DNA from: Mollicutes bacterium SLUWU-24
Lineage (GTDB): Bacteria; Bacillota_I; Bacilli_A; UBA3375
Reading direction: 5' to 3'
Assembly (NCBI GenBank): GCA_049070185.1
Contig: JBLYTW010000002.1
Coordinates: 136,515-160,514, forward strand
Length of the DNA stretch: 24,000 nt
Below are positions 1,268-21,396 of this stretch, piece by piece. The notes beneath the pieces are model-generated. The model saw only the letters and a list, made by a program, of their open reading frames with translations, was not told where the DNA came from and ran no database searches. Every line of letters begins with the position of its first letter. Position 1 is the first letter of the stretch. A program made the translations under genes and the position numbers.

Positions 1268-3097
1268 TTATCCTTTTACTGTTTTAATTACACTATCAAC
1301 ATCAATTGCTAATTCTTGTTTTAAGATATCAACATTCCCTTGTTCAACAAACATATCATCAATTGCTATTACATGTAAAGTTACTTGTTTATTCGTTTTT
1401 ACATAGTAATCACTTATTAAGCTATTTAATCCTCCTAAGCGTTGATGTTCTTCAACAATATATAATTGATGCTTACTAATCTCATCCAAACGATTTTCAT
1501 CAATTGGTTTAATAAAACGCGCATTAATTACCCCAATTTTCGGATCATCTGTAAAAATCGTTGCATATTTTTGGACATCTGGACCATAACTAATGATATA
1601 TTTTTCACTTCCTGGAGTTAGAATTGGCCAATTCATATCTGTAATTGGAATAACTGGTTCAAGGGTTTTTGCCAGTTCAAAACAACCTCCACGAGAATAA
1701 CGGGTTGCATATACACCATCATACGCAAAACCAAATGCTAATAAACTACGGATTTCACTCGCCGTTGATCCCATTGAAATAACAATATTTGGCATATGAC
1801 TTAAAAAACTAATATCGTAAATTCCTTGATGGGTTTCACCATCATCACCAACAAGTCCAGCACGATCAATTCCAATAACAACGTTTGTATTTTGTCGAAC
1901 CAAATCATGAAACACTTGGTCATAACTACGTTGTAAGAACGTTGAATAAATTGACACAAATGGTTTTTTACCACCAAGTGCTAATGCACCTGCAAACGTA
2001 ATTGCATGTTCCTCGGCAATTCCAACATCGGTAACTCGATTTGGATATTTTTGTTTTAAGATTTGTAATTCACTTCCATCAAGCATTGCCGGAGTAATTA
2101 CCGCAATCTCTGGGTCTTTATCCATCATTTGGTGAATTGTTTTTGCCACTAAACCTGAATAAGATACTCCCGTTTTCGGTTTTAACACTTCTCCTGTTTC
2201 TACATTAAATGGAGAAATTCCATGCCACTGATTCTGTTCGGCTGGTAAATAACCTTTTCCTTTTTCCGTTTTCACATGAACAATTACCGGACCATTAATA
2301 TTTTTAGCATTTTCAAGTGTTTTAATTAAATCTATATAATCATGTCCATTTACCGGACCATAATATTTATAACCCATTGTATTAAAGAAACTTTTTGCCC
2401 CATTGATTTCACTTTTAAGTTTTCGTTTAAACTTACTAATGAAACGAGCAAGAGCATCACCACCCGGTGATTTATCTAAAGTTTTATGAACAATTTGTTT
2501 TGTTTCATCATAATGACTTGAATATTCTAAATCCTTTAAAATCTTAGCAATATATCCAACATTAGACGATATTGACATTTCATTATCATTAATAACAATA
2601 ATTACTTTTTGATTTAATTCAGCAATGTGATTCAATGCTTCTAGTGCCATTCCATTAGTTAAAGAACCATCACCAATTACGGCAACAACATGATTATTAT
2701 CATTATTCATATCACGAGCATACGCAAAACCACATGCTGCTGAAATACTTGTTGATGAGTGTCCTGCTTCCCATACATCATGCTTTGATTCTTTTAATTT
2801 TAAAAAACCTGATAGTCCTTGATATTGTCGTAACGTTGCAAACTCATCTTTACGTCCTGTTAATAACTTATGAACATATCCTTGATGTCCAACATCAAAT
2901 ATCAACTTATCGGTCGGTGAATCAAAAACATAATGTAATGCTGTTGTTAATTCAACTATTCCTAAATTTGATCCTAAATGTCCACCAGTTTTACTTACAC
3001 TTTCAATTAAAAATGTTCGAATTTCTGCTGATAATGTTATTAATTCTTCAGTTGATAATTCTTTTAATTGTTCCGGTCCCTTTATCCTATCTAACAT
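1268..3097 (-). CDS. dxs: 1-deoxy-D-xylulose-5-phosphate synthase (MEP pathway entry enzyme)
   Basis: About 609 aa. Motifs are GGHLGSNLGIVELTTALHYVF, GHQGYVHKLLTGR and the TPP-binding GDGSLTNGMALEALN. The ORF track starts at GTG 3100. I prefer ATG 3097, which lies 6 nt after a GAGGA RBS. Confidence 0.95.
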   Translation of the reverse strand: MLDRIKGPEQLKELSTEELITLSAEIRTFLIESVSKTGGHLGSNLGIVELTTALHYVFDSPTDKLIFDVGHQGYVHKLLTGRKDEFATLRQYQGLSGFLKLKESKHDVWEAGHSSTSISAACGFAYARDMNNDNNHVVAVIGDGSLTNGMALEALNHIAELNQKVIIVINDNEMSISSNVGYIAKILKDLEYSSHYDETKQIVHKTLDKSPGGDALARFISKFKRKLKSEINGAKSFFNTMGYKYYGPVNGHDYIDLIKTLENAKNINGPVIVHVKTEKGKGYLPAEQNQWHGISPFNVETGEVLKPKTGVSYSGLVAKTIHQMMDKDPEIAVITPAMLDGSELQILKQKYPNRVTDVGIAEEHAITFAGALALGGKKPFVSIYSTFLQRSYDQVFHDLVRQNTNVVIGIDRAGLVGDDGETHQGIYDISFLSHMPNIVISMGSTASEIRSLLAFGFAYDGVYATRYSRGGCFELAKTLEPVIPITDMNWPILTPGSEKYIISYGPDVQKYATIFTDDPKIGVINARFIKPIDENRLDEISKHQLYIVEEHQRLGGLNSLISDYYVKTNKQVTLHVIAIDDMFVEQGNVDILKQELAIDVDSVIKTVKG

Positions 3098-3109
3098 CAC
3101 ATGTCCTCG

Positions 3110-5659: not shown

Positions 5660-6481
5660 CTACTTTATAAATAATTCAAGTCCTTTGGTTGTATCATCAA
5701 TTTTACCAGTAATTTTTTTAATCGCAATATGCGCAAGTACTACACCAATTGCATAAAAATCAATTGGGAAATTTTTAATATTTGGTACTATTTTTGAAAT
5801 TTCTTCGGTATGATCTAGAACATAAATATCTTTTGTAATCCCTTGATTAATCAATGCAGCAGCCTGTTCAATTGTCTGAGTTACATACATATCTAAATCT
5901 GTACTCATTGTTTTTGTTACATCAATAGCATCTTTAAATAAATCACTTAAAATATAATTAGTCATTATTTTATCGGTTGGAAAATAGATACCAGCTTTTT
6001 TTTCATTATATTTTGGATCAATCTTAATATCTAATAAGTTATTATCCATCCCCACAATAATTTTATTAGCAATATCTTTTTCTGGACCAATTTGTACTAC
6101 TGCTTTTATTTCTGAAGAAGCAAGTAAAATATTATTTTCTTCTTCATATTTTTTTAAATCAAAATCATATTCCTTAATAATTGGATCATATTTATAGATT
6201 TGTGTTCCATTTTTAAAACCTTTAATTAATTCTGAATAACAAGGTACTGATATTGATGGTACTAATAACATAATTCGCTTTGTTGCATTTACAGCTGCTA
6301 AATTTCGTGCCGAGTTATTTGGTACATAATTTAATTTTTTAATTGCATCAAGAACTGCACGACGTTTAACATCGCGAACCTTTCCATTATTAATTACTCG
6401 TGAAACAGTTGCAATTGATACTCCTGCTTCTTTTGCCACATCAGTTATTGTTATATATTGTTCTTCTCTTTTTTTTCGCAT
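5660..6481 (-). CDS. LacI-family HTH transcriptional regulator, unusually short (273 aa)
   Basis: The N-terminal LacI-type HTH is ITITDVAKEAGVSIATVSRVINNGKVRDVKRRAVLDAIKKLNYVPNNSARNLA, followed by IMLLVPSISVPCYSELIKGF, which matches the start of the sugar-binding fold. The rest is divergent and about 60 aa shorter than typical family members. Confidence 0.7.
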   Translation of the reverse strand: MRKKREEQYITITDVAKEAGVSIATVSRVINNGKVRDVKRRAVLDAIKKLNYVPNNSARNLAAVNATKRIMLLVPSISVPCYSELIKGFKNGTQIYKYDPIIKEYDFDLKKYEEENNILLASSEIKAVVQIGPEKDIANKIIVGMDNNLLDIKIDPKYNEKKAGIYFPTDKIMTNYILSDLFKDAIDVTKTMSTDLDMYVTQTIEQAAALINQGITKDIYVLDHTEEISKIVPNIKNFPIDFYAIGVVLAHIAIKKITGKIDDTTKGLELFIK

Positions 6482-14750: not shown

Positions 14751-14790
14751 AAAAAACTATCCGTGACTATTAATAGTAACGCGATAGTTT
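14751..14790 (-). terminator. Rho-independent terminator closing the heliorhodopsin-SDR unit
   Basis: A long imperfect hairpin (14754-14790, about 16 bp with one bulge and one mismatch) begins 10 nt after the SDR stop. It runs into a T-run on the minus strand (A-run 14751-14756). Confidence 0.65.
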
Positions 14791-14799
14791 TCTTTAATT

Positions 14800-15483
14800 T
14801 TAAATTATAACTGGTTCTAACCATTTGATTTCAGAAAATTCTTTAAAGCATTTTCCACTCGTATTTTGTTCAATAATATTGATAATCATTTCGTAGATTT
14901 CATCAGCTTCACGATAGGCTCCATTTAACCCTAAACGAGTTTTTACCATTCCAGGATATAAAACATTAAAATTAATATCCGAAATCGTAGCACTATAAAT
15001 TTGCATCATACTATTTAACGTTGACTTTGACAAAGCATATTGTGCCGCTTCTTTTTTTGCCAATCCTGGATAGTGAGCAAATCCAGTTGAAAGACTAATA
15101 ACATTTCCTTGAGGATTAATTAAGTCTAATACACCATTAATTAATTTTTGTACCGCAAATACATTAACTAAAAAAACATCTTCTAAATCATTTGCTTCAT
15201 TTATTGATTTTGTATAATCACCAATTACCCCTGCATTATTAATTAAAATATCAATTTTTACGTTAGCAGTATGTAATTTTTGACATAGATTACTAATTTC
15301 TGTACTGTTTTTTAATTCGCACAATTCGACTTGAAGGTTTTCACTCCCAAACTCTTGTTCCAGACGTTCTTTATCAGTTAATTTACGGACTGTACCAATT
15401 ACTTTATTATTATTTTCTAAAAATAATTTAGTTGTAGCATAACCAATCCCTTGAGCAATCCCAGTTATTAATATTGTTTTCAT
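14800..15483 (-). CDS. classical short-chain dehydrogenase/reductase (SDR), substrate unknown
   Basis: 227 aa. It has the cofactor motif TGIAQGIG (TGxxxGxG), NNAG, and the catalytic YxxxK (YALSK). A strong RBS (GGAGGAG) sits 4 nt before the ATG. Confidence 0.8.
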   Translation of the reverse strand: MKTILITGIAQGIGYATTKLFLENNNKVIGTVRKLTDKERLEQEFGSENLQVELCELKNSTEISNLCQKLHTANVKIDILINNAGVIGDYTKSINEANDLEDVFLVNVFAVQKLINGVLDLINPQGNVISLSTGFAHYPGLAKKEAAQYALSKSTLNSMMQIYSATISDINFNVLYPGMVKTRLGLNGAYREADEIYEMIINIIEQNTSGKCFKEFSEIKWLEPVII

Positions 15484-15525
15484 TGTACTCCTCCATCCTC
15501 ATTTAACTGTATTATACTAAACATT

Positions 15526-16305
15526 TTAAGCAGGTTGCATAATTCTAAAAAAGATTAACCAAATTAAAATTGTTTTTGCCACTAAACTTAAAATAATATA
15601 TACATACTCTCCATATAAATAATCTTGCCATTTACCAATTTTTTTATATTGTAAAATCATATTTAACGGGAACAAATTAAAGAAAAATAAATATGAAATG
15701 AATATTGCATAGACAAAAAATGGAACTTCACTTGGACTAGTATTTCCAAATCCATACATAATTATTATTATCCACGGAACAATTCCGGCAAAACTCCCAA
15801 ATAAAAATGGTGTCCAATCAGTTTTATTTGTGTATTGATTTAATCGTTCCATTAATAAACCAAATAAATTCATTGTTGCATTAAGTCCGAAAATTAAAAT
15901 CAAACTCCCTAAATCATATACACCAAATAACACGGCAATCAATACAATCATAATTGACGAAGAAAGTGCATATTCATACCAACGGTATTTATTAATACCA
16001 TTATCTAATCCTTGTAAATAATCATCTTTTTTAATTACAATTAAAAAATGAAAAAAAGCCGAAATAAATAAAAATAGACTTGCTATCAAAGCAAATGGTA
16101 TCTCCGCCCATTCAACAGTTTGTGGTACAAGTCGCATTACATTTGAATCAAATGTCAGATAACTTGTTGTAATCATTGGTTTAAAATCAATTGCCTTTTG
16201 TAAATTCAGAGCCAGAAATGCCATTAAAATTGCTTGAAGTAAGTGTAATCCACCCATTATTACATTAAATTTTAAAATTTTTTGTGATTCAATTTTATTA
16301 TTCAT
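15526..16305 (-). CDS. heliorhodopsin (retinal-binding 7-TM photoreceptor, inverted-topology rhodopsin family)
   Basis: From ATG 16305 (AAGGAGG RBS 5 nt upstream) the ORF is 259 aa. It matches heliorhodopsin 48C12, as I recall it, motif by motif: GGLHLLQ, SAFFHF, RWYEYALSSSIMIVLIA, FGLNATMNLFG, AGIVPWI, LFFFN, LQYKKIGKWQDYLYGEYVYIILSLVAKT and the C-terminal ...QPA. There are seven hydrophobic segments. The Schiff-base Lys244 codon is at 15574-15576. Confidence 0.85.
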   Translation of the reverse strand: MNNKIESQKILKFNVIMGGLHLLQAILMAFLALNLQKAIDFKPMITTSYLTFDSNVMRLVPQTVEWAEIPFALIASLFLFISAFFHFLIVIKKDDYLQGLDNGINKYRWYEYALSSSIMIVLIAVLFGVYDLGSLILIFGLNATMNLFGLLMERLNQYTNKTDWTPFLFGSFAGIVPWIIIIMYGFGNTSPSEVPFFVYAIFISYLFFFNLFPLNMILQYKKIGKWQDYLYGEYVYIILSLVAKTILIWLIFFRIMQPA

Positions 16306-16397
16306 TTTAACCTCCTTATATAACATTGTTTTATATTTATATAATAACATTTACATGTGTTAATCTTGTGGCAGTATTATTCTTCAAGTAATTATAC

Positions 16398-16432
16398 ATA
16401 CTAAAATATTTAAATACTTATTATTTTAGTAT
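16398..16432. promoter_or_regulatory. 11-bp perfect inverted repeat (candidate operator) in the heliorhodopsin/lipoprotein divergent intergenic region
   Basis: ATACTAAAATA (16398-16408) and TATTTTAGTAT (16422-16432) are exact reverse complements separated by 13 nt. The left arm abuts a minus-strand TATAAT (16391-16396). The right arm overlaps a possible plus-strand -35 TTAGTA (16426-16431), which lies 17 nt before TATAAT (16449-16454). Confidence 0.4.
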
Positions 16433-16473
16433 TATCATTGATTTTTTGTATAATTATAATGAGGGAGAATATT

Positions 16474-17391
16474 ATGTCAAAAAAATTAACTTTAATTATT
16501 ACAACATTTTTATTAATTTTATCTGGATGTGGTTCAGATCCAATAACAAACAATACTAAAACGAATACACAAGAAACTTCAGCACTAAATAATAATACTT
16601 CTACTAATGAGAACACTTCTACTAATGAGAACACTTCTACTAATGAGAACACTTCTACTAATGAGGACACTTCTACTAATGAAGATGCTTCTACTAATGA
16701 GGACACTTCTACTAATGAAGATGCTTCTACTAATGAGGACACTTCTACTAGTGAAGATGTTTCAAATAATGAAGACGTTTCTACTAATGATAAACAAACT
16801 GATCAATTTGGACGTGAAATTTCTGAAGCAGCAGCAAATCAATCAAAATATAATATTACAAACAAATCAGTTGCAACATCACTAGGTGCTAAAATCATTA
16901 ATAATGAAACTGAGGCACGAAACCAATTGGCGAAAGAAGAATTTAATAATAATGATGATATTGCTTACAATTCAATGGGTAAAGGAATTAATCAGGTTAG
17001 TGGAAACACTGTATATAAATTTGAAGTTATTATTAAATCGGCTCAAGCACAGGGTGGTTCAGGTTCTGCTGGTTTTTATGAAGTTCAAGAGGATGGTACT
17101 TATTATTATACTGATAATAATAAAAGTTATCTCGACAAGCAGTCAGCTGATGAGGATACAATAACTGCACATAATCTACTATTGAATAAGCTTTTACAAG
17201 TTTATCCACAATTTGACCAATATAAATATGATTTCAATATCGAAGCGGTCAATGATTCAACATATCAAATAACACTTGCAATTCGCGATAATGTTAATGC
17301 AACGGATGAAGATTTAAATTTTGTTGGCACTTATATTGTAAATATTAATGGAAATATTGAAAGTTATCCTGATACTATAACAATAGACTAA
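16474..17391 (+). CDS. surface lipoprotein with an acidic Ser/Thr/Asn-rich tandem-repeat linker and an unknown C-terminal domain
   Basis: ATG 16474 follows a GAGGGAG RBS. The signal peptide MSKKLTLIITTFLLILSGC carries the lipobox L-S-G-C. Next come 11 TSTNE(N/D)-type hexapeptides and then a roughly 200-aa domain I do not recognise. This is the only plus-strand gene in the window. Confidence 0.8.
   Translation: MSKKLTLIITTFLLILSGCGSDPITNNTKTNTQETSALNNNTSTNENTSTNENTSTNENTSTNEDTSTNEDASTNEDTSTNEDASTNEDTSTSEDVSNNEDVSTNDKQTDQFGREISEAAANQSKYNITNKSVATSLGAKIINNETEARNQLAKEEFNNNDDIAYNSMGKGINQVSGNTVYKFEVIIKSAQAQGGSGSAGFYEVQEDGTYYYTDNNKSYLDKQSADEDTITAHNLLLNKLLQVYPQFDQYKYDFNIEAVNDSTYQITLAIRDNVNATDEDLNFVGTYIVNINGNIESYPDTITID
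16597..16794 (+). repeat. in-frame 18-bp tandem repeat, 11 copies (coding minisatellite)
   Basis: Units start at 16597 and recur every 18 bp. Copies 1-3 are identical (ACTTCTACTAATGAGAAC). Copies 5-6 and 7-8 form an exactly duplicated 36-bp higher-order unit (16669-16704 = 16705-16740). Copies 9-11 degenerate progressively. Confidence 0.95.
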
Positions 17392-17415: not shown

Positions 17416-17446
17416 AAAAGTAGAGTAAAATTACTCTACTTTTTTA
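17416..17446. terminator. bidirectional Rho-independent terminator between the convergent lipoprotein and nfo genes
   Basis: Stem GTAGAGTAA/TTACTCTAC (17420-17439) is flanked by A4 upstream and T-rich sequence downstream (TTTTTTATT on plus; TTTTATTT on minus). Confidence 0.7.
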
Positions 17447-17474: not shown

Positions 17475-17507
17475 AACTCCTAGGTTATAATACCCAGGAG
17501 TTTTTTT
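17475..17507 (+). terminator. second plus-strand hairpin with T7, abutting the nfo stop
   Basis: Stem AACTCCTAGG/CCCAGGAGTT (one mismatch) with an 8-nt loop, followed by T7 (17501-17507). On the minus strand no T-run follows it, so it is scored as plus-oriented. Confidence 0.5.
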
Positions 17508-18393
17508 ATTTTATATTTCTTTCTTCATCTAACCAATCTGTAAACTCATTTGCACGTATCATTGCAATTTCTTTTTGATATGGTGCTTCCTTCTTATCAT
17601 TTACATACGGAGTTTCCAAAATTTTTGTAATATCTTTTGTTTTTGGATGATTAATTACTTGCATAATGTTTGCAAATCCAATATGACCATAACCAATATT
17701 ATCATGACGGTCTTTTCCCGCTCCTCGAATATTCTTAGAATCATTTATATGGAGAACTTTTAATTTATCTAGACCAATTGTTGCATCAAATTCATTTAAA
17801 ATTTGATCAAAATTACTTAAATCATAACCGGCATCATGTATATGACAAGTATCTAAACAAACACCTAATTTTTCAGGATATTTTACATTGTTAATAATGT
17901 AAGCCAATTCTTCAAATGTACGACCTAATTCTGTTCCTTTTCCCGCCATTGTTTCTAAACAAACAATCGCATTTTGTTCTTTTGTTAAAACTAAATCAAG
18001 TCCTTTAACAATTTGTTCTAATCCTGCAGAAGTTCCAGCCTTTACATGTGCTCCTGGATGAAGCACGATGTATTTTGCCCCAATCGCTTCTGTACGTTCA
18101 ATTTCCATTTTTAGAAAATCAACCGCAATCGTAAATGTATCGGGTTTAATTGTGTTTCCTAAATTAATAATATATGGTGCATGAATTATTACTCGTTCTA
18201 AATCAATATCATTTTCTTGTAATAAAGTTTTTGCTTCATCAATCCTTAATTCTTCAACCGGCTTACGTTTAGTATTTTGTGGTGCTCCGGTATAAATCAT
18301 CATTGCGTTAGCTCCATTTTTTAGTGAATCTTCAACACTACCTAATAACATTTTCTTTCCACTCATTGATACGTGACTACCAATATATAACAT
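17506..18393 (-). CDS. nfo: endonuclease IV (AP endonuclease)
   Basis: 295 aa with the TIM-barrel Nfo pattern: [58 protein letters not shown]...GAGKDRH. Confidence 0.93.
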
Positions 18394-20940: not shown

Positions 20941-21396
20941 CTAATAGCGATTTTTTAATTTTAACGCTTTTTCAATTTCTCTTTTTTGTGTTTTAGTTTT
21001 TAAATCGTTACGCTTATCGTAATTTTTCTTTCCCCGAGCTAAAGCAATTTCTAATTTAACACGATTATTTTTAAAGTACATTCGTACTGGTACAATCGTA
21101 TATCCTTTTTCATTAACTTCACTACTTAAACGATTAATTTCGCGTTTATGTAACAATAAACGACGCATTCTCCGCTCATCAATATTTTGGATTTTATGAG
21201 CATTGTCATATTTTTTTATATACATATTATATATATATATTTCTCTTTTTGGCGTTATTTTAATAAAACTTTCAGTTAAACTAACGTCTTTTTTGCGAAT
21301 TGACTTTATTTCGCTTCCGAGTAGTTCGATTCCCGCCTCGATTTTTTTTTCGACGTGATAATCGTGATTTATCTTTTTGTTTTTGATTATTGTCAT
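20941..21396 (-). CDS. smpB: SsrA-binding protein SmpB
   Basis: From ATG 21396 (AAGGAG RBS 5 nt upstream) the ORF is 151 aa: MTIIKNKKINHDYHVEKKIEAGIELLGSEIKSIR...LLLHKREI...GYTIVPVRMYFKNNRVKLEIALARGKK.YDKR. It is collinear with B. subtilis SmpB. The track's 22-codon extension is rejected. Confidence 0.92.
   Translation of the reverse strand: MTIIKNKKINHDYHVEKKIEAGIELLGSEIKSIRKKDVSLTESFIKITPKREIYIYNMYIKKYDNAHKIQNIDERRMRRLLLHKREINRLSSEVNEKGYTIVPVRMYFKNNRVKLEIALARGKKNYDKRNDLKTKTQKREIEKALKLKNRY

Follow-up and report, generated by a model that had tools for sequence, protein, structure and literature searches.

The occurrence of a heliorhodopsin (HeR) gene among the housekeeping genes of a small, AT-rich bacterial genome raises two questions, namely whether the gene encodes a true member of this rhodopsin family and, if so, what its product does. 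The gene lies at positions 15526-16305, on the minus strand, of a 24,000-nucleotide stretch of contig JBLYTW010000002.1 from Mollicutes bacterium SLUWU-24, and it is this whole stretch that we refer to as the window. An earlier note, made from the sequence alone, had called the gene an HeR with an intact retinal pocket. Profile, alignment and structure all agree with this call, and the gene encodes, as judged from its sequence and its modeled fold, a genuine, complete HeR. By analogy with characterized relatives, we further consider it highly probable that the product is a selectively maintained, non-transporting HeR resembling that of Thermoplasmatales archaeon SG8-52-1 (TaHeR), which works as a sensor with a slow photocycle and modulates a partner.

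The open reading frame (ORF) begins with an ATG at 16305, ends with a TAA stop codon at 15526-15528 and encodes 259 amino acids, exactly as had been noted, and its assignment is based on the ORF list, on Pfam and NCBIfam profiles and on a structure model. A Shine-Dalgarno sequence, AAGGAGG, is found 5 nt before this ATG (16311-16317, minus strand), and homologues align from the Met encoded at 16305; a longer ORF starting from an ATG at 16350 was accordingly rejected. The product matches the Pfam family PF18761 (Heliorhodopsin) with 314.5 bits, as compared to a cutoff of 26.7 (E=5.5e-94, profile positions 3-241 of 242), and the NCBIfam HeR equivalog NF038020 with 306.1 bits, as compared to a cutoff of 100 (E=1.7e-91, positions 3-243 of 244). 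As the latter match is above its cutoff, a standard annotation pipeline would already name the gene, and that of NCBI would label it 'heliorhodopsin HeR'. A sequence search of the PDB yielded six matches only, all of them HeR entries (E 1e-59 to 9e-50), with TaHeR at the top (E=1.4e-59) and the actinobacterial HeR 48C12 at about 3e-50. The AlphaFold2 model, built from 35 clade sequences, reached a predicted local distance difference test score (pLDDT) of 90 and a predicted template modeling score (pTM) of 0.85, and presents seven helices along with the beta-hairpin characteristic of HeRs in the A-B loop, for which DSSP assigned strands to residues 44-53 and 58-68 of the model, in the stretch joining helix A to helix B. 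When the model was compared to the PDB using Foldseek, TaHeR (6is6) came first, with template modeling (TM) scores of 0.90/0.93 and a root-mean-square deviation of 2.1 Å, while 48C12 (6su3) gave TM 0.82-0.83. The top ten matches were all HeRs (E <= 4e-13), and the best type-1 rhodopsin followed with E=4e-3 and TM 0.57, a drop of ten orders of magnitude in E-value. The profile search, the alignment to 48C12 and TaHeR and the superposition on HeR crystal structures, which the earlier note had proposed as checks, each came out in favor of its call.

For the residue-level comparison, we used the functional residue lists of Kovalev et al. 2020 (PMC7049168), mapped by a pairwise alignment that agrees with the HMMER alignment to 48C12 (6su3). 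The HMMER alignment bears out the correspondences that had been drawn for His21, His86, Glu111 and Lys244 (H23, H80, E107 and K241 of 48C12, respectively), and the sequence blocks cited along with them (GGLHLLQ, SAFFHF, RWYEYALSSS, LSLVAKT, AGIVPWI, LFFFN, LQYKKIGKW..YLYGE and the C-terminal PA) are all present. By alignment, Lys244 is the retinal Schiff-base lysine, and its codon, correctly placed before, is at 15574-15576 (minus strand); Glu111, the single Schiff-base counterion, is encoded at 15973-15975 (minus strand). The call had been made to depend on these two residues being located in helices G and C. Indeed, Lys244 is found in model helix 229-255 and Glu111 in model helix 106-126, and both are invariant in 35 of 35 clade sequences. 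The Schiff-base set is complete, with K241, S237, E107, S111 and S76 of 48C12 represented by K244, S240, E111, S115 and S82 (5 of 5). In this set, Ser240 stands where a second carboxylate would be (S237 in 48C12), and Ser82 and Ser115 are the equivalents of the stabilizing Ser76 and Ser111. The cavity set is likewise complete (8 of 8), with H23, H80, N101, Y108, N16, E230, R104 and Y92 corresponding to H21, H86, N105, Y112, N14, E233, R108 and Y96. Four of five residues in the Glu149 region match 48C12 (E153, Q219, Y229 and W109 are conserved), as do nine of ten in the retinal pocket (N142, S116, S117, W178, M145, F209, F78, M119 and P177 are conserved), where the only differences are Q213, replaced by Met216, and I142, replaced by Asn146. 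The combination of Met and Asn at these two positions is the pattern of HeR subfamily 3 (Kovalev et al. 2020, PMC7049168). The mapped functional positions are all invariant in the 35-sequence clade alignment.

The distribution of basic residues allows a prediction of topology. The predicted cytoplasmic segments (the N-terminus and the B-C, D-E and F-G loops) contain 10 Lys and Arg residues, as compared to 4 in the predicted outside segments (the A-B, C-D and E-F loops and the C-terminus), which, by the positive-inside rule, fits the inverted topology, with a predicted cytoplasmic N-terminus. We also considered the criterion for carotenoid-binding ('two-antenna') HeRs of the Kornilov et al. 2025 preprint, which, in 48C12 numbering, asks for an aromatic residue at both 162 and 206, a small one at both 166 and 210, Gly169 and Asn207. 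The corresponding fenestration residues here are Phe167, Phe209, Ser171, Pro213 (compare P258 of Cv06), Gly174 and Asn210, and the motif is thus complete. This should be considered with care, as 91% of HeRs present the same motif according to the preprint, such that it has no discriminating power.

Among characterized HeRs, TaHeR (6is6, 7clj and 7u55) is the closest by both sequence and structure, with 45% identity. The two proteins have in common the Lys, the Glu and the pair of His residues, Met and Asn in the pocket (...MNL... and ...NM..LQYKKIGKW) and the hydrophobic extracellular half. They differ in that TaHeR is archaeal while the window HeR is bacterial, in the length and sequence of the A-B loop, in an Ala at the fenestration where Pro213 is found here, and in Ile199, where Tyr205 is found here. 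48C12 (6su3, 6su4 and 6uh3) shows 49% identity over 241 aligned residues yet a weaker structural fit than TaHeR. The 17 conserved polar or charged residues listed by Kovalev et al. are present save Q213, for which Met is a common variant (Kovalev et al. 2020, PMC7049168). Apart from the two pocket substitutions, the differences from 48C12 include Q247, replaced by Leu250, and F203 of the fenestration, replaced by Leu206. A third group for comparison is formed by HeRs that regulate partner proteins, namely AbHeR with glutamine synthetase (PMC9529153), TfHeR with the cyclobutane pyrimidine dimer (CPD)-II photolyase (PMC9769723) and OcHeR with the OmrDE ABC transporter (PMC11109279). The window HeR is similarly a prokaryotic HeR in a predicted operon with a non-rhodopsin gene, and its basic cytoplasmic loops (K92, K93, K106, R108, K221, K222 and K225) resemble the partner-binding loops of those HeRs. 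The partner genes proven in those cases are, however, not found in the window, where the operon partner is instead a short-chain dehydrogenase/reductase (SDR).

The earlier note had regarded an HeR in such surroundings as not expected from its neighbors. This does not hold, as HeRs are common in such hosts and as a housekeeping, non-conserved neighborhood is the norm for the clade. Our protein search returned 6190 HeR homologues at E <= 1e-20. In a scan of one genome per GTDB species (r232), 314 relatives were found, with names and neighborhoods taken from the best 80. These best 80 of 314 include Ca. Izimoplasma sp. ZiA1, Peloplasma aerotolerans, Mariniplasma and several Acholeplasmataceae, as well as 'Mollicutes' and 'Mycoplasmatales' metagenome-assembled genomes (MAGs), many Clostridia and Alkalibacterium, and other Bacilli, such as Halolactibacillus; the species-representative scan also found HeR relatives in Izemoplasmatales genomes. 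The window species itself is outside the GTDB r232 species representatives, among which the best HeR match is 70% identical. Firmicutes, including Tenericutes, are a known HeR-bearing group (Chazan et al.), and our literature searches on heliorhodopsin together with Mollicutes or Tenericutes turned up incidental mentions only. The HeRs of wall-less or Mollicutes-like Bacilli (Ca. Izimoplasma sp. ZiA1, Peloplasma aerotolerans, Acholeplasmataceae, Mariniplasma and Mycoplasmatales MAGs) are 54-70% identical to that of the window and come from the same broad host group, with small AT-rich genomes and variable neighborhoods, although none presents the SDR, glpX or nfo neighborhood seen here. A Pfam survey of 145 immediate neighbors at 73 related loci revealed no dominant partner and no family occurring more than 8 times. 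The recurring families were Oxidored_FMN (8), DNA photolyase (5), LigT (4) and DNA-alkylation repair (3), with DUF2177 (2) and SDR, TatD, AhpC and MsrB (1 each) being rarer. One HeR, 74% identical, is found directly upstream of rpsB-tsf. When 80 related loci were scanned for linkage of SDR, GlpX, GpsA, PurA, the lipoprotein, Nfo, GalU or PyrG to HeR, none was found save an unrelated SDR at one locus (L006) and an adjacent PyrG at another (L010).

As for the neighbors within the window, the housekeeping context had been described well in the earlier note, while the most informative neighbor, a co-oriented SDR gene 42 nt downstream of the HeR gene, had been overlooked. This gene (14800-15483, minus strand) encodes a classical SDR oxidoreductase of 227 amino acids (adh_short, 88 bits) that reaches the cutoff of no named NCBIfam equivalog and can only be described as an 'SDR family oxidoreductase'. 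When read against the classical-SDR motifs, its sequence presents TGxxxGxG (T7-G14), NNAG (82-85) and the tetrad Asn107, Ser130 or Ser132, Tyr149 and Lys153, and Arg33-Lys34, following strand beta-2, suggests the use of NADP(H). The 42-nt spacer between the two genes (15484-15525, minus strand) carries the ribosome-binding site of the SDR gene, GGAGGAG, along with a TATAAT-like hexamer, and it is unstructured, with a minimum free energy of -1.2 kcal/mol (z +1.3) and no terminator. A hairpin followed by a U-run, resembling an intrinsic terminator, is located after the SDR gene (14751-14793, minus strand; -18 kcal/mol, z -5.2, with 0 of 200 shuffles as good). Upstream, a promoter-like site, TTGACA-16 nt-TATAAT (16453-16480, minus strand), matches the consensus at 12 of 12 positions, this being a consensus match only, about 150 nt before the HeR start. 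With such a site upstream, an unstructured spacer and a terminator-like hairpin only after the SDR gene, the locus shows a promoter-HeR-SDR-terminator anatomy, and HeR and SDR form a predicted two-gene transcription unit. No match to Rfam at gathering thresholds or to tRNA genes was found anywhere in the 24-kb window, and therefore no riboswitch or other RNA element is tied to the HeR leader.

We next consider how far this unit extends among relatives. The window HeR is identical to that of a 449,835-bp NCBI contig (P0121), strains about 99% identical are represented by GCA_040777145.1 and a Logan run, and a 90%-identical HeR is found in a relative in GCA_019826165.1. The gene order HeR-SDR-glpX is kept at loci L081 and L083, and the HeR-SDR pair is kept only in the strains of about 99% identity and in the 90% relative L083, where the SDR is 85% identical. 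When compared to L083, the ratio of nonsynonymous to synonymous substitution rates (dN/dS) is 0.095 for HeR and 0.11 for SDR, and of the 27 HeR substitutions none affects a functional residue. From these substitution patterns, both genes are under purifying selection. The deep conservation expected of a functional module is not seen. Rather, as the pairing is present only in close relatives, the HeR-SDR operon is a recent, genus-level arrangement, and a functional coupling of the two products is possible while receiving no support from deep conservation. The SDR has very few orthologues, at 99, 85, 84, 66 and 61% identity, followed by sequences at 36% or less; that of 66% (L091) adjoins a ribD-like gene preceded by an FMN-riboswitch-like element, and that of 61% adjoins radical-SAM and nrdDG genes. 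At L091, about 970-1180, downstream of the SDR, we judged by eye the FMN-riboswitch-like sequence (…GGGCAGAGTGAAATTCTCGACCGGCGGTGATAGTCCGTGAGC…), which is followed by the ribD-like ORF (MLKDDQYFMSKALELAKKG…).

The data on this locus show the family and fold of the protein, the conservation of its residues, purifying selection and the anatomy of the operon, and it is from characterized family members that we infer retinal binding, a photocycle, a role as sensor or regulator and which protein is the partner. The following mechanism is proposed. The protein would insert with its N-terminus in the cytoplasm and bind all-trans-retinal at Lys244 through a protonated Schiff base, for which Glu111 would be the sole counterion and which Ser240, Ser115 and Ser82 would stabilize. 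The retinal would probably be imported from outside or made by another route. Light would isomerize the retinal, and a proton would move into a water-filled cavity, predicted to be lined by His21, His86, Asn14, Asn105, Tyr96, Tyr112, Arg108 and Glu233, with no net ion transport. The long-lived intermediate would then alter the Lys/Arg-rich cytoplasmic loops, through which a partner, either soluble or in the membrane, would be bound and modulated. HeR would be transcribed from its own promoter along with the lineage-restricted, NADP(H)-type SDR. The proposal of partner modulation matches experiments on HeRs, for which binding of glutamine synthetase (PMC9529153), a photolyase (PMC9769723) and an ABC transporter (PMC11109279) has been demonstrated. 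The SDR is the most accessible candidate partner here, albeit a weak one, rather unlikely to be the true one. Several observations weigh against this picture and should be taken into consideration. Residue 254, at the extracellular end of helix G, is a strain-specific Arg at a position whose conservation across the clade alignment is 90% or more. No blh or crt genes for retinal synthesis are found within the 24-kb window. The TATAAT-like hexamer in the spacer means that the SDR gene could own a promoter. HeR relatives at 73-75% identity have no adjoining SDR, an SDR is found downstream of HeR at only one of 73 related loci (L006), where it is unrelated (25% identity), and no HeR adjoins the SDR orthologues of 66% and 61% identity.

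Other explanations of the gene can be weighed against the same data. Viral HeRs transport protons, with E191 (the hallmark), W195 (the gate) and E205 as the determinants in V2HeR3 (PMC9448325), and the lack of ion pumping stated in the earlier note thus does not apply to the whole family. It does apply to the present protein as far as these determinants are concerned. The window HeR shares with V2HeR3 and the other viral proton-transporting HeRs the family, the Schiff-base Lys and the Glu counterion. Transport by these HeRs, and the presence here of a cytoplasmic hydrogen-bond network that includes Glu233 and Gln219, could be taken to favor a light-driven or light-gated proton transporter. However, the positions of E191, W195 and E205 are occupied by Tyr205, Phe209 and Gln219, such that the Glu at 191, in TM6, and the Trp at 195 that define V2HeR3-type proton transport are both absent; E191 and W195 correspond to I199 and F203 of TaHeR. 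The extracellular half of the helices contains no charged residue, the protein belongs to the clade in which this half is hydrophobic, and the closest structures, TaHeR and 48C12, are non-transporting (PMC9448325). We hence regard proton transport as extremely unlikely. The gene could also be a relic that is decaying or has lost its chromophore, in the reduced genome of a host-associated organism that possibly lives in the dark. Arg254 and a retinal pathway that is not visible in the window speak for this, and an association with animals is hinted at by CTP-synthase matches in mixed assemblies and in a mantis-shrimp assembly. Such decay is difficult to reconcile with the low dN/dS of HeR and its unaltered functional sites, or with the intact ORF, strong ribosome-binding site, consensus promoter match and conserved pocket residues, and we find it very unlikely.

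HeR and the co-transcribed SDR could form a dedicated light-regulated pair, in which the cytoplasmic loops switch an NADPH-dependent carbonyl reduction, with the substrate being either aldehydes derived from photo-oxidation or retinal/retinol, for supply or recycling of the chromophore. The bicistronic unit with its single terminator is in line with such a pair, as is the retention of both genes under purifying selection (90% amino acid identity for HeR and 85% for SDR, at dN/dS of about 0.1), and the SDR tetrad and cofactor motifs are intact. SDRs are, moreover, one of ten recurrent classes of same-operon HeR partners (Cho et al. 2024), for example in Thermococcus sp. 2319x1, although only the ABC-transporter partner was tested in that study and no SDR, and our search of the literature on HeR partners found no tested HeR-SDR interaction. 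NAD(P)H oxidoreductases also recur near clade HeRs, as reflected by the 8 Oxidored_FMN genes among the 145 neighbors, and HeR-only genomes in general seldom carry blh (Chazan et al.). Nonetheless, the pairing is confined to one genus-level clade, HeRs of 75% identity or less have other neighbors, the more distant SDR orthologues have no HeR nearby, and the SDR at L006 is not orthologous. Same-strand adjacency is often functionally meaningless in a genome that is 92% coding, and the substrate of the SDR cannot be assigned, as every NCBIfam equivalog scored below cutoff. A dedicated pair of this kind is rather unlikely, and a light-switch/enzyme pair, or an SDR that acts as a retinol/retinal oxidoreductase supplying or recycling the chromophore in a reduced genome that has no blh, is quite unlikely. 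HeR could alternatively serve as a general sensor of photo-oxidative stress or DNA damage, with outputs such as the endonuclease IV encoded by nfo or a photolyase elsewhere, which we hold to be doubtful. The nfo gene (17506-18393) is on the same strand, 1.2 kb upstream of HeR, the clade neighbors include photolyase (five times), DNA-alkylation repair (three times) and TatD, AhpC and MsrB (once each), TfHeR enhances photolyase activity (PMC9769723), and a role in oxidative stress was proposed by Bulzu et al. Still, no single repair family accounts for more than 7% of neighbors, nfo is near HeR at none of 80 other loci, and in the window the divergent lipoprotein gene and a bidirectional terminator (17416-17443) separate the two genes, for which reason co-transcription of nfo and HeR was rejected. 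All in all, a diffuse role in photo-oxidative stress or DNA repair is comparably plausible to a partnership with the SDR.

The window HeR is an ordinary member of a large, structurally solved and automatically annotated family, in a host group in which such genes are common, and nothing about its family, fold, motifs or host group is new. As HeR function is only partly understood, any HeR that comes with a clean operon partner could offer a way to study it, and the HeR-SDR operon is the sole feature of the locus that might repay experiment. With a small, tightly packed genome, an HeR-SDR unit under purifying selection and relatives with complete 2 Mb genomes ('Mollicutes bacterium LVI'), the locus is a reasonable, although not unique, test case for the model of HeRs as regulatory helper rhodopsins and for the question of the chromophore source. 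If the HeR-SDR pair is real, control of a redox enzyme by an HeR would be shown for the first time, and an SDR acting as a retinol/retinal oxidoreductase would bear on the source of retinal in HeR-only organisms.

The remainder of the window is consistent with the Mollicutes-like context of translation and nucleotide-salvage genes that had been described before, and which is confirmed by the CTP synthase relatives and by gene content. The window is 92% coding, has about 30% G+C and consists almost wholly of housekeeping genes on the minus strand, including an FtsJ/S4-domain methyltransferase, dxs, era, cdd, tyrS, a LacI-type regulator, an ABC-2 transporter pair and hpt, as well as purB, purA, gpsA, glpX, nfo, galU, pyrG, smpB and rnr. 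For the CTP synthase, identity reaches 71-72% with 'Mollicutes bacterium LVI A0039/A0078' (genomes of about 2 Mb) and 69-73% with 'Mycoplasmatales bacterium' MAGs, as compared to only about 53-55% with typical Bacilli and Spiroplasma. By these protein relatives, the host is an uncultured Mollicutes-lineage bacterium. A recoding of TGA to Trp, as in Mycoplasmatales, was considered and rejected, since the 23 intact genes contain 43 TGG and zero TGA codons. Across the 23 window genes, the stop codons are 17 TAA and 6 TAG, with TGA never used, and TGA may be very rare or unassigned in this host. A 59%-identical, bacterial-type CTP synthase (P0269) is annotated in the assembly of the mantis shrimp Oratosquilla oratoria, on an 8.4-Mb contig, and close relatives of the window come from very large mixed assemblies (contig indices >470,000), which hints at a Mollicutes lineage that is associated with marine invertebrates or that is a contaminant of such assemblies.

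Some further observations concern individual genes. Residue 254 of the HeR, Arg here (codon 15544-15546, minus strand), is Gly in all of the close relatives P0001, P0002 and P0122. The gene divergent from HeR (16474-17391, plus strand) is a lipoprotein-like ORF with the lipobox MSKKLTLIITTFLLILSGC and no Pfam or NCBIfam match. It contains a repeat array (16597-16790) of 10.8 tandem copies of an 18-nt unit that encodes TSTNE(D/N), and the window copy is 72 nt, or four units, longer than that in L081. As this ORF is also the least conserved between strains (90%, as compared to 99-100% for its neighbors), these features point to a variable surface protein. The promoter-like site on the HeR strand (16453-16480) overlaps the first codons of this gene and also overlaps the gene's own promoter-like site (16432-16460, plus strand, 10 of 12 matches); given these overlaps, there may be interference between the two transcription units.

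The window also contains a full-length gene for 1-deoxy-D-xylulose 5-phosphate (DXP) synthase, dxs (1268-3100, minus strand), which implies the methylerythritol phosphate (MEP) route to isoprenoid precursors and bears on the supply of carotenoid and retinal precursors. The LacI/CcpA-family regulator (5660-6481, minus strand) is only 273 amino acids long, with residues 9-132 matching positions 2-124 of 330 in the CcpA model; as only the helix-turn-helix and the first third of the model are matched, its effector-binding domain is short or divergent. Finally, smpB starts at an ATG at 21396 that is preceded by a good Shine-Dalgarno sequence, AAAGGAGAAG, and its segment 21281-21396 (minus strand) overlaps the last 116 nt of rnr in another frame. 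The portion of rnr under this overlap encodes the Lys/Arg-rich C-terminal tail of RNase R, and the public gene call for L081 shortens SmpB to 94 amino acids, thereby avoiding the overlap with rnr.

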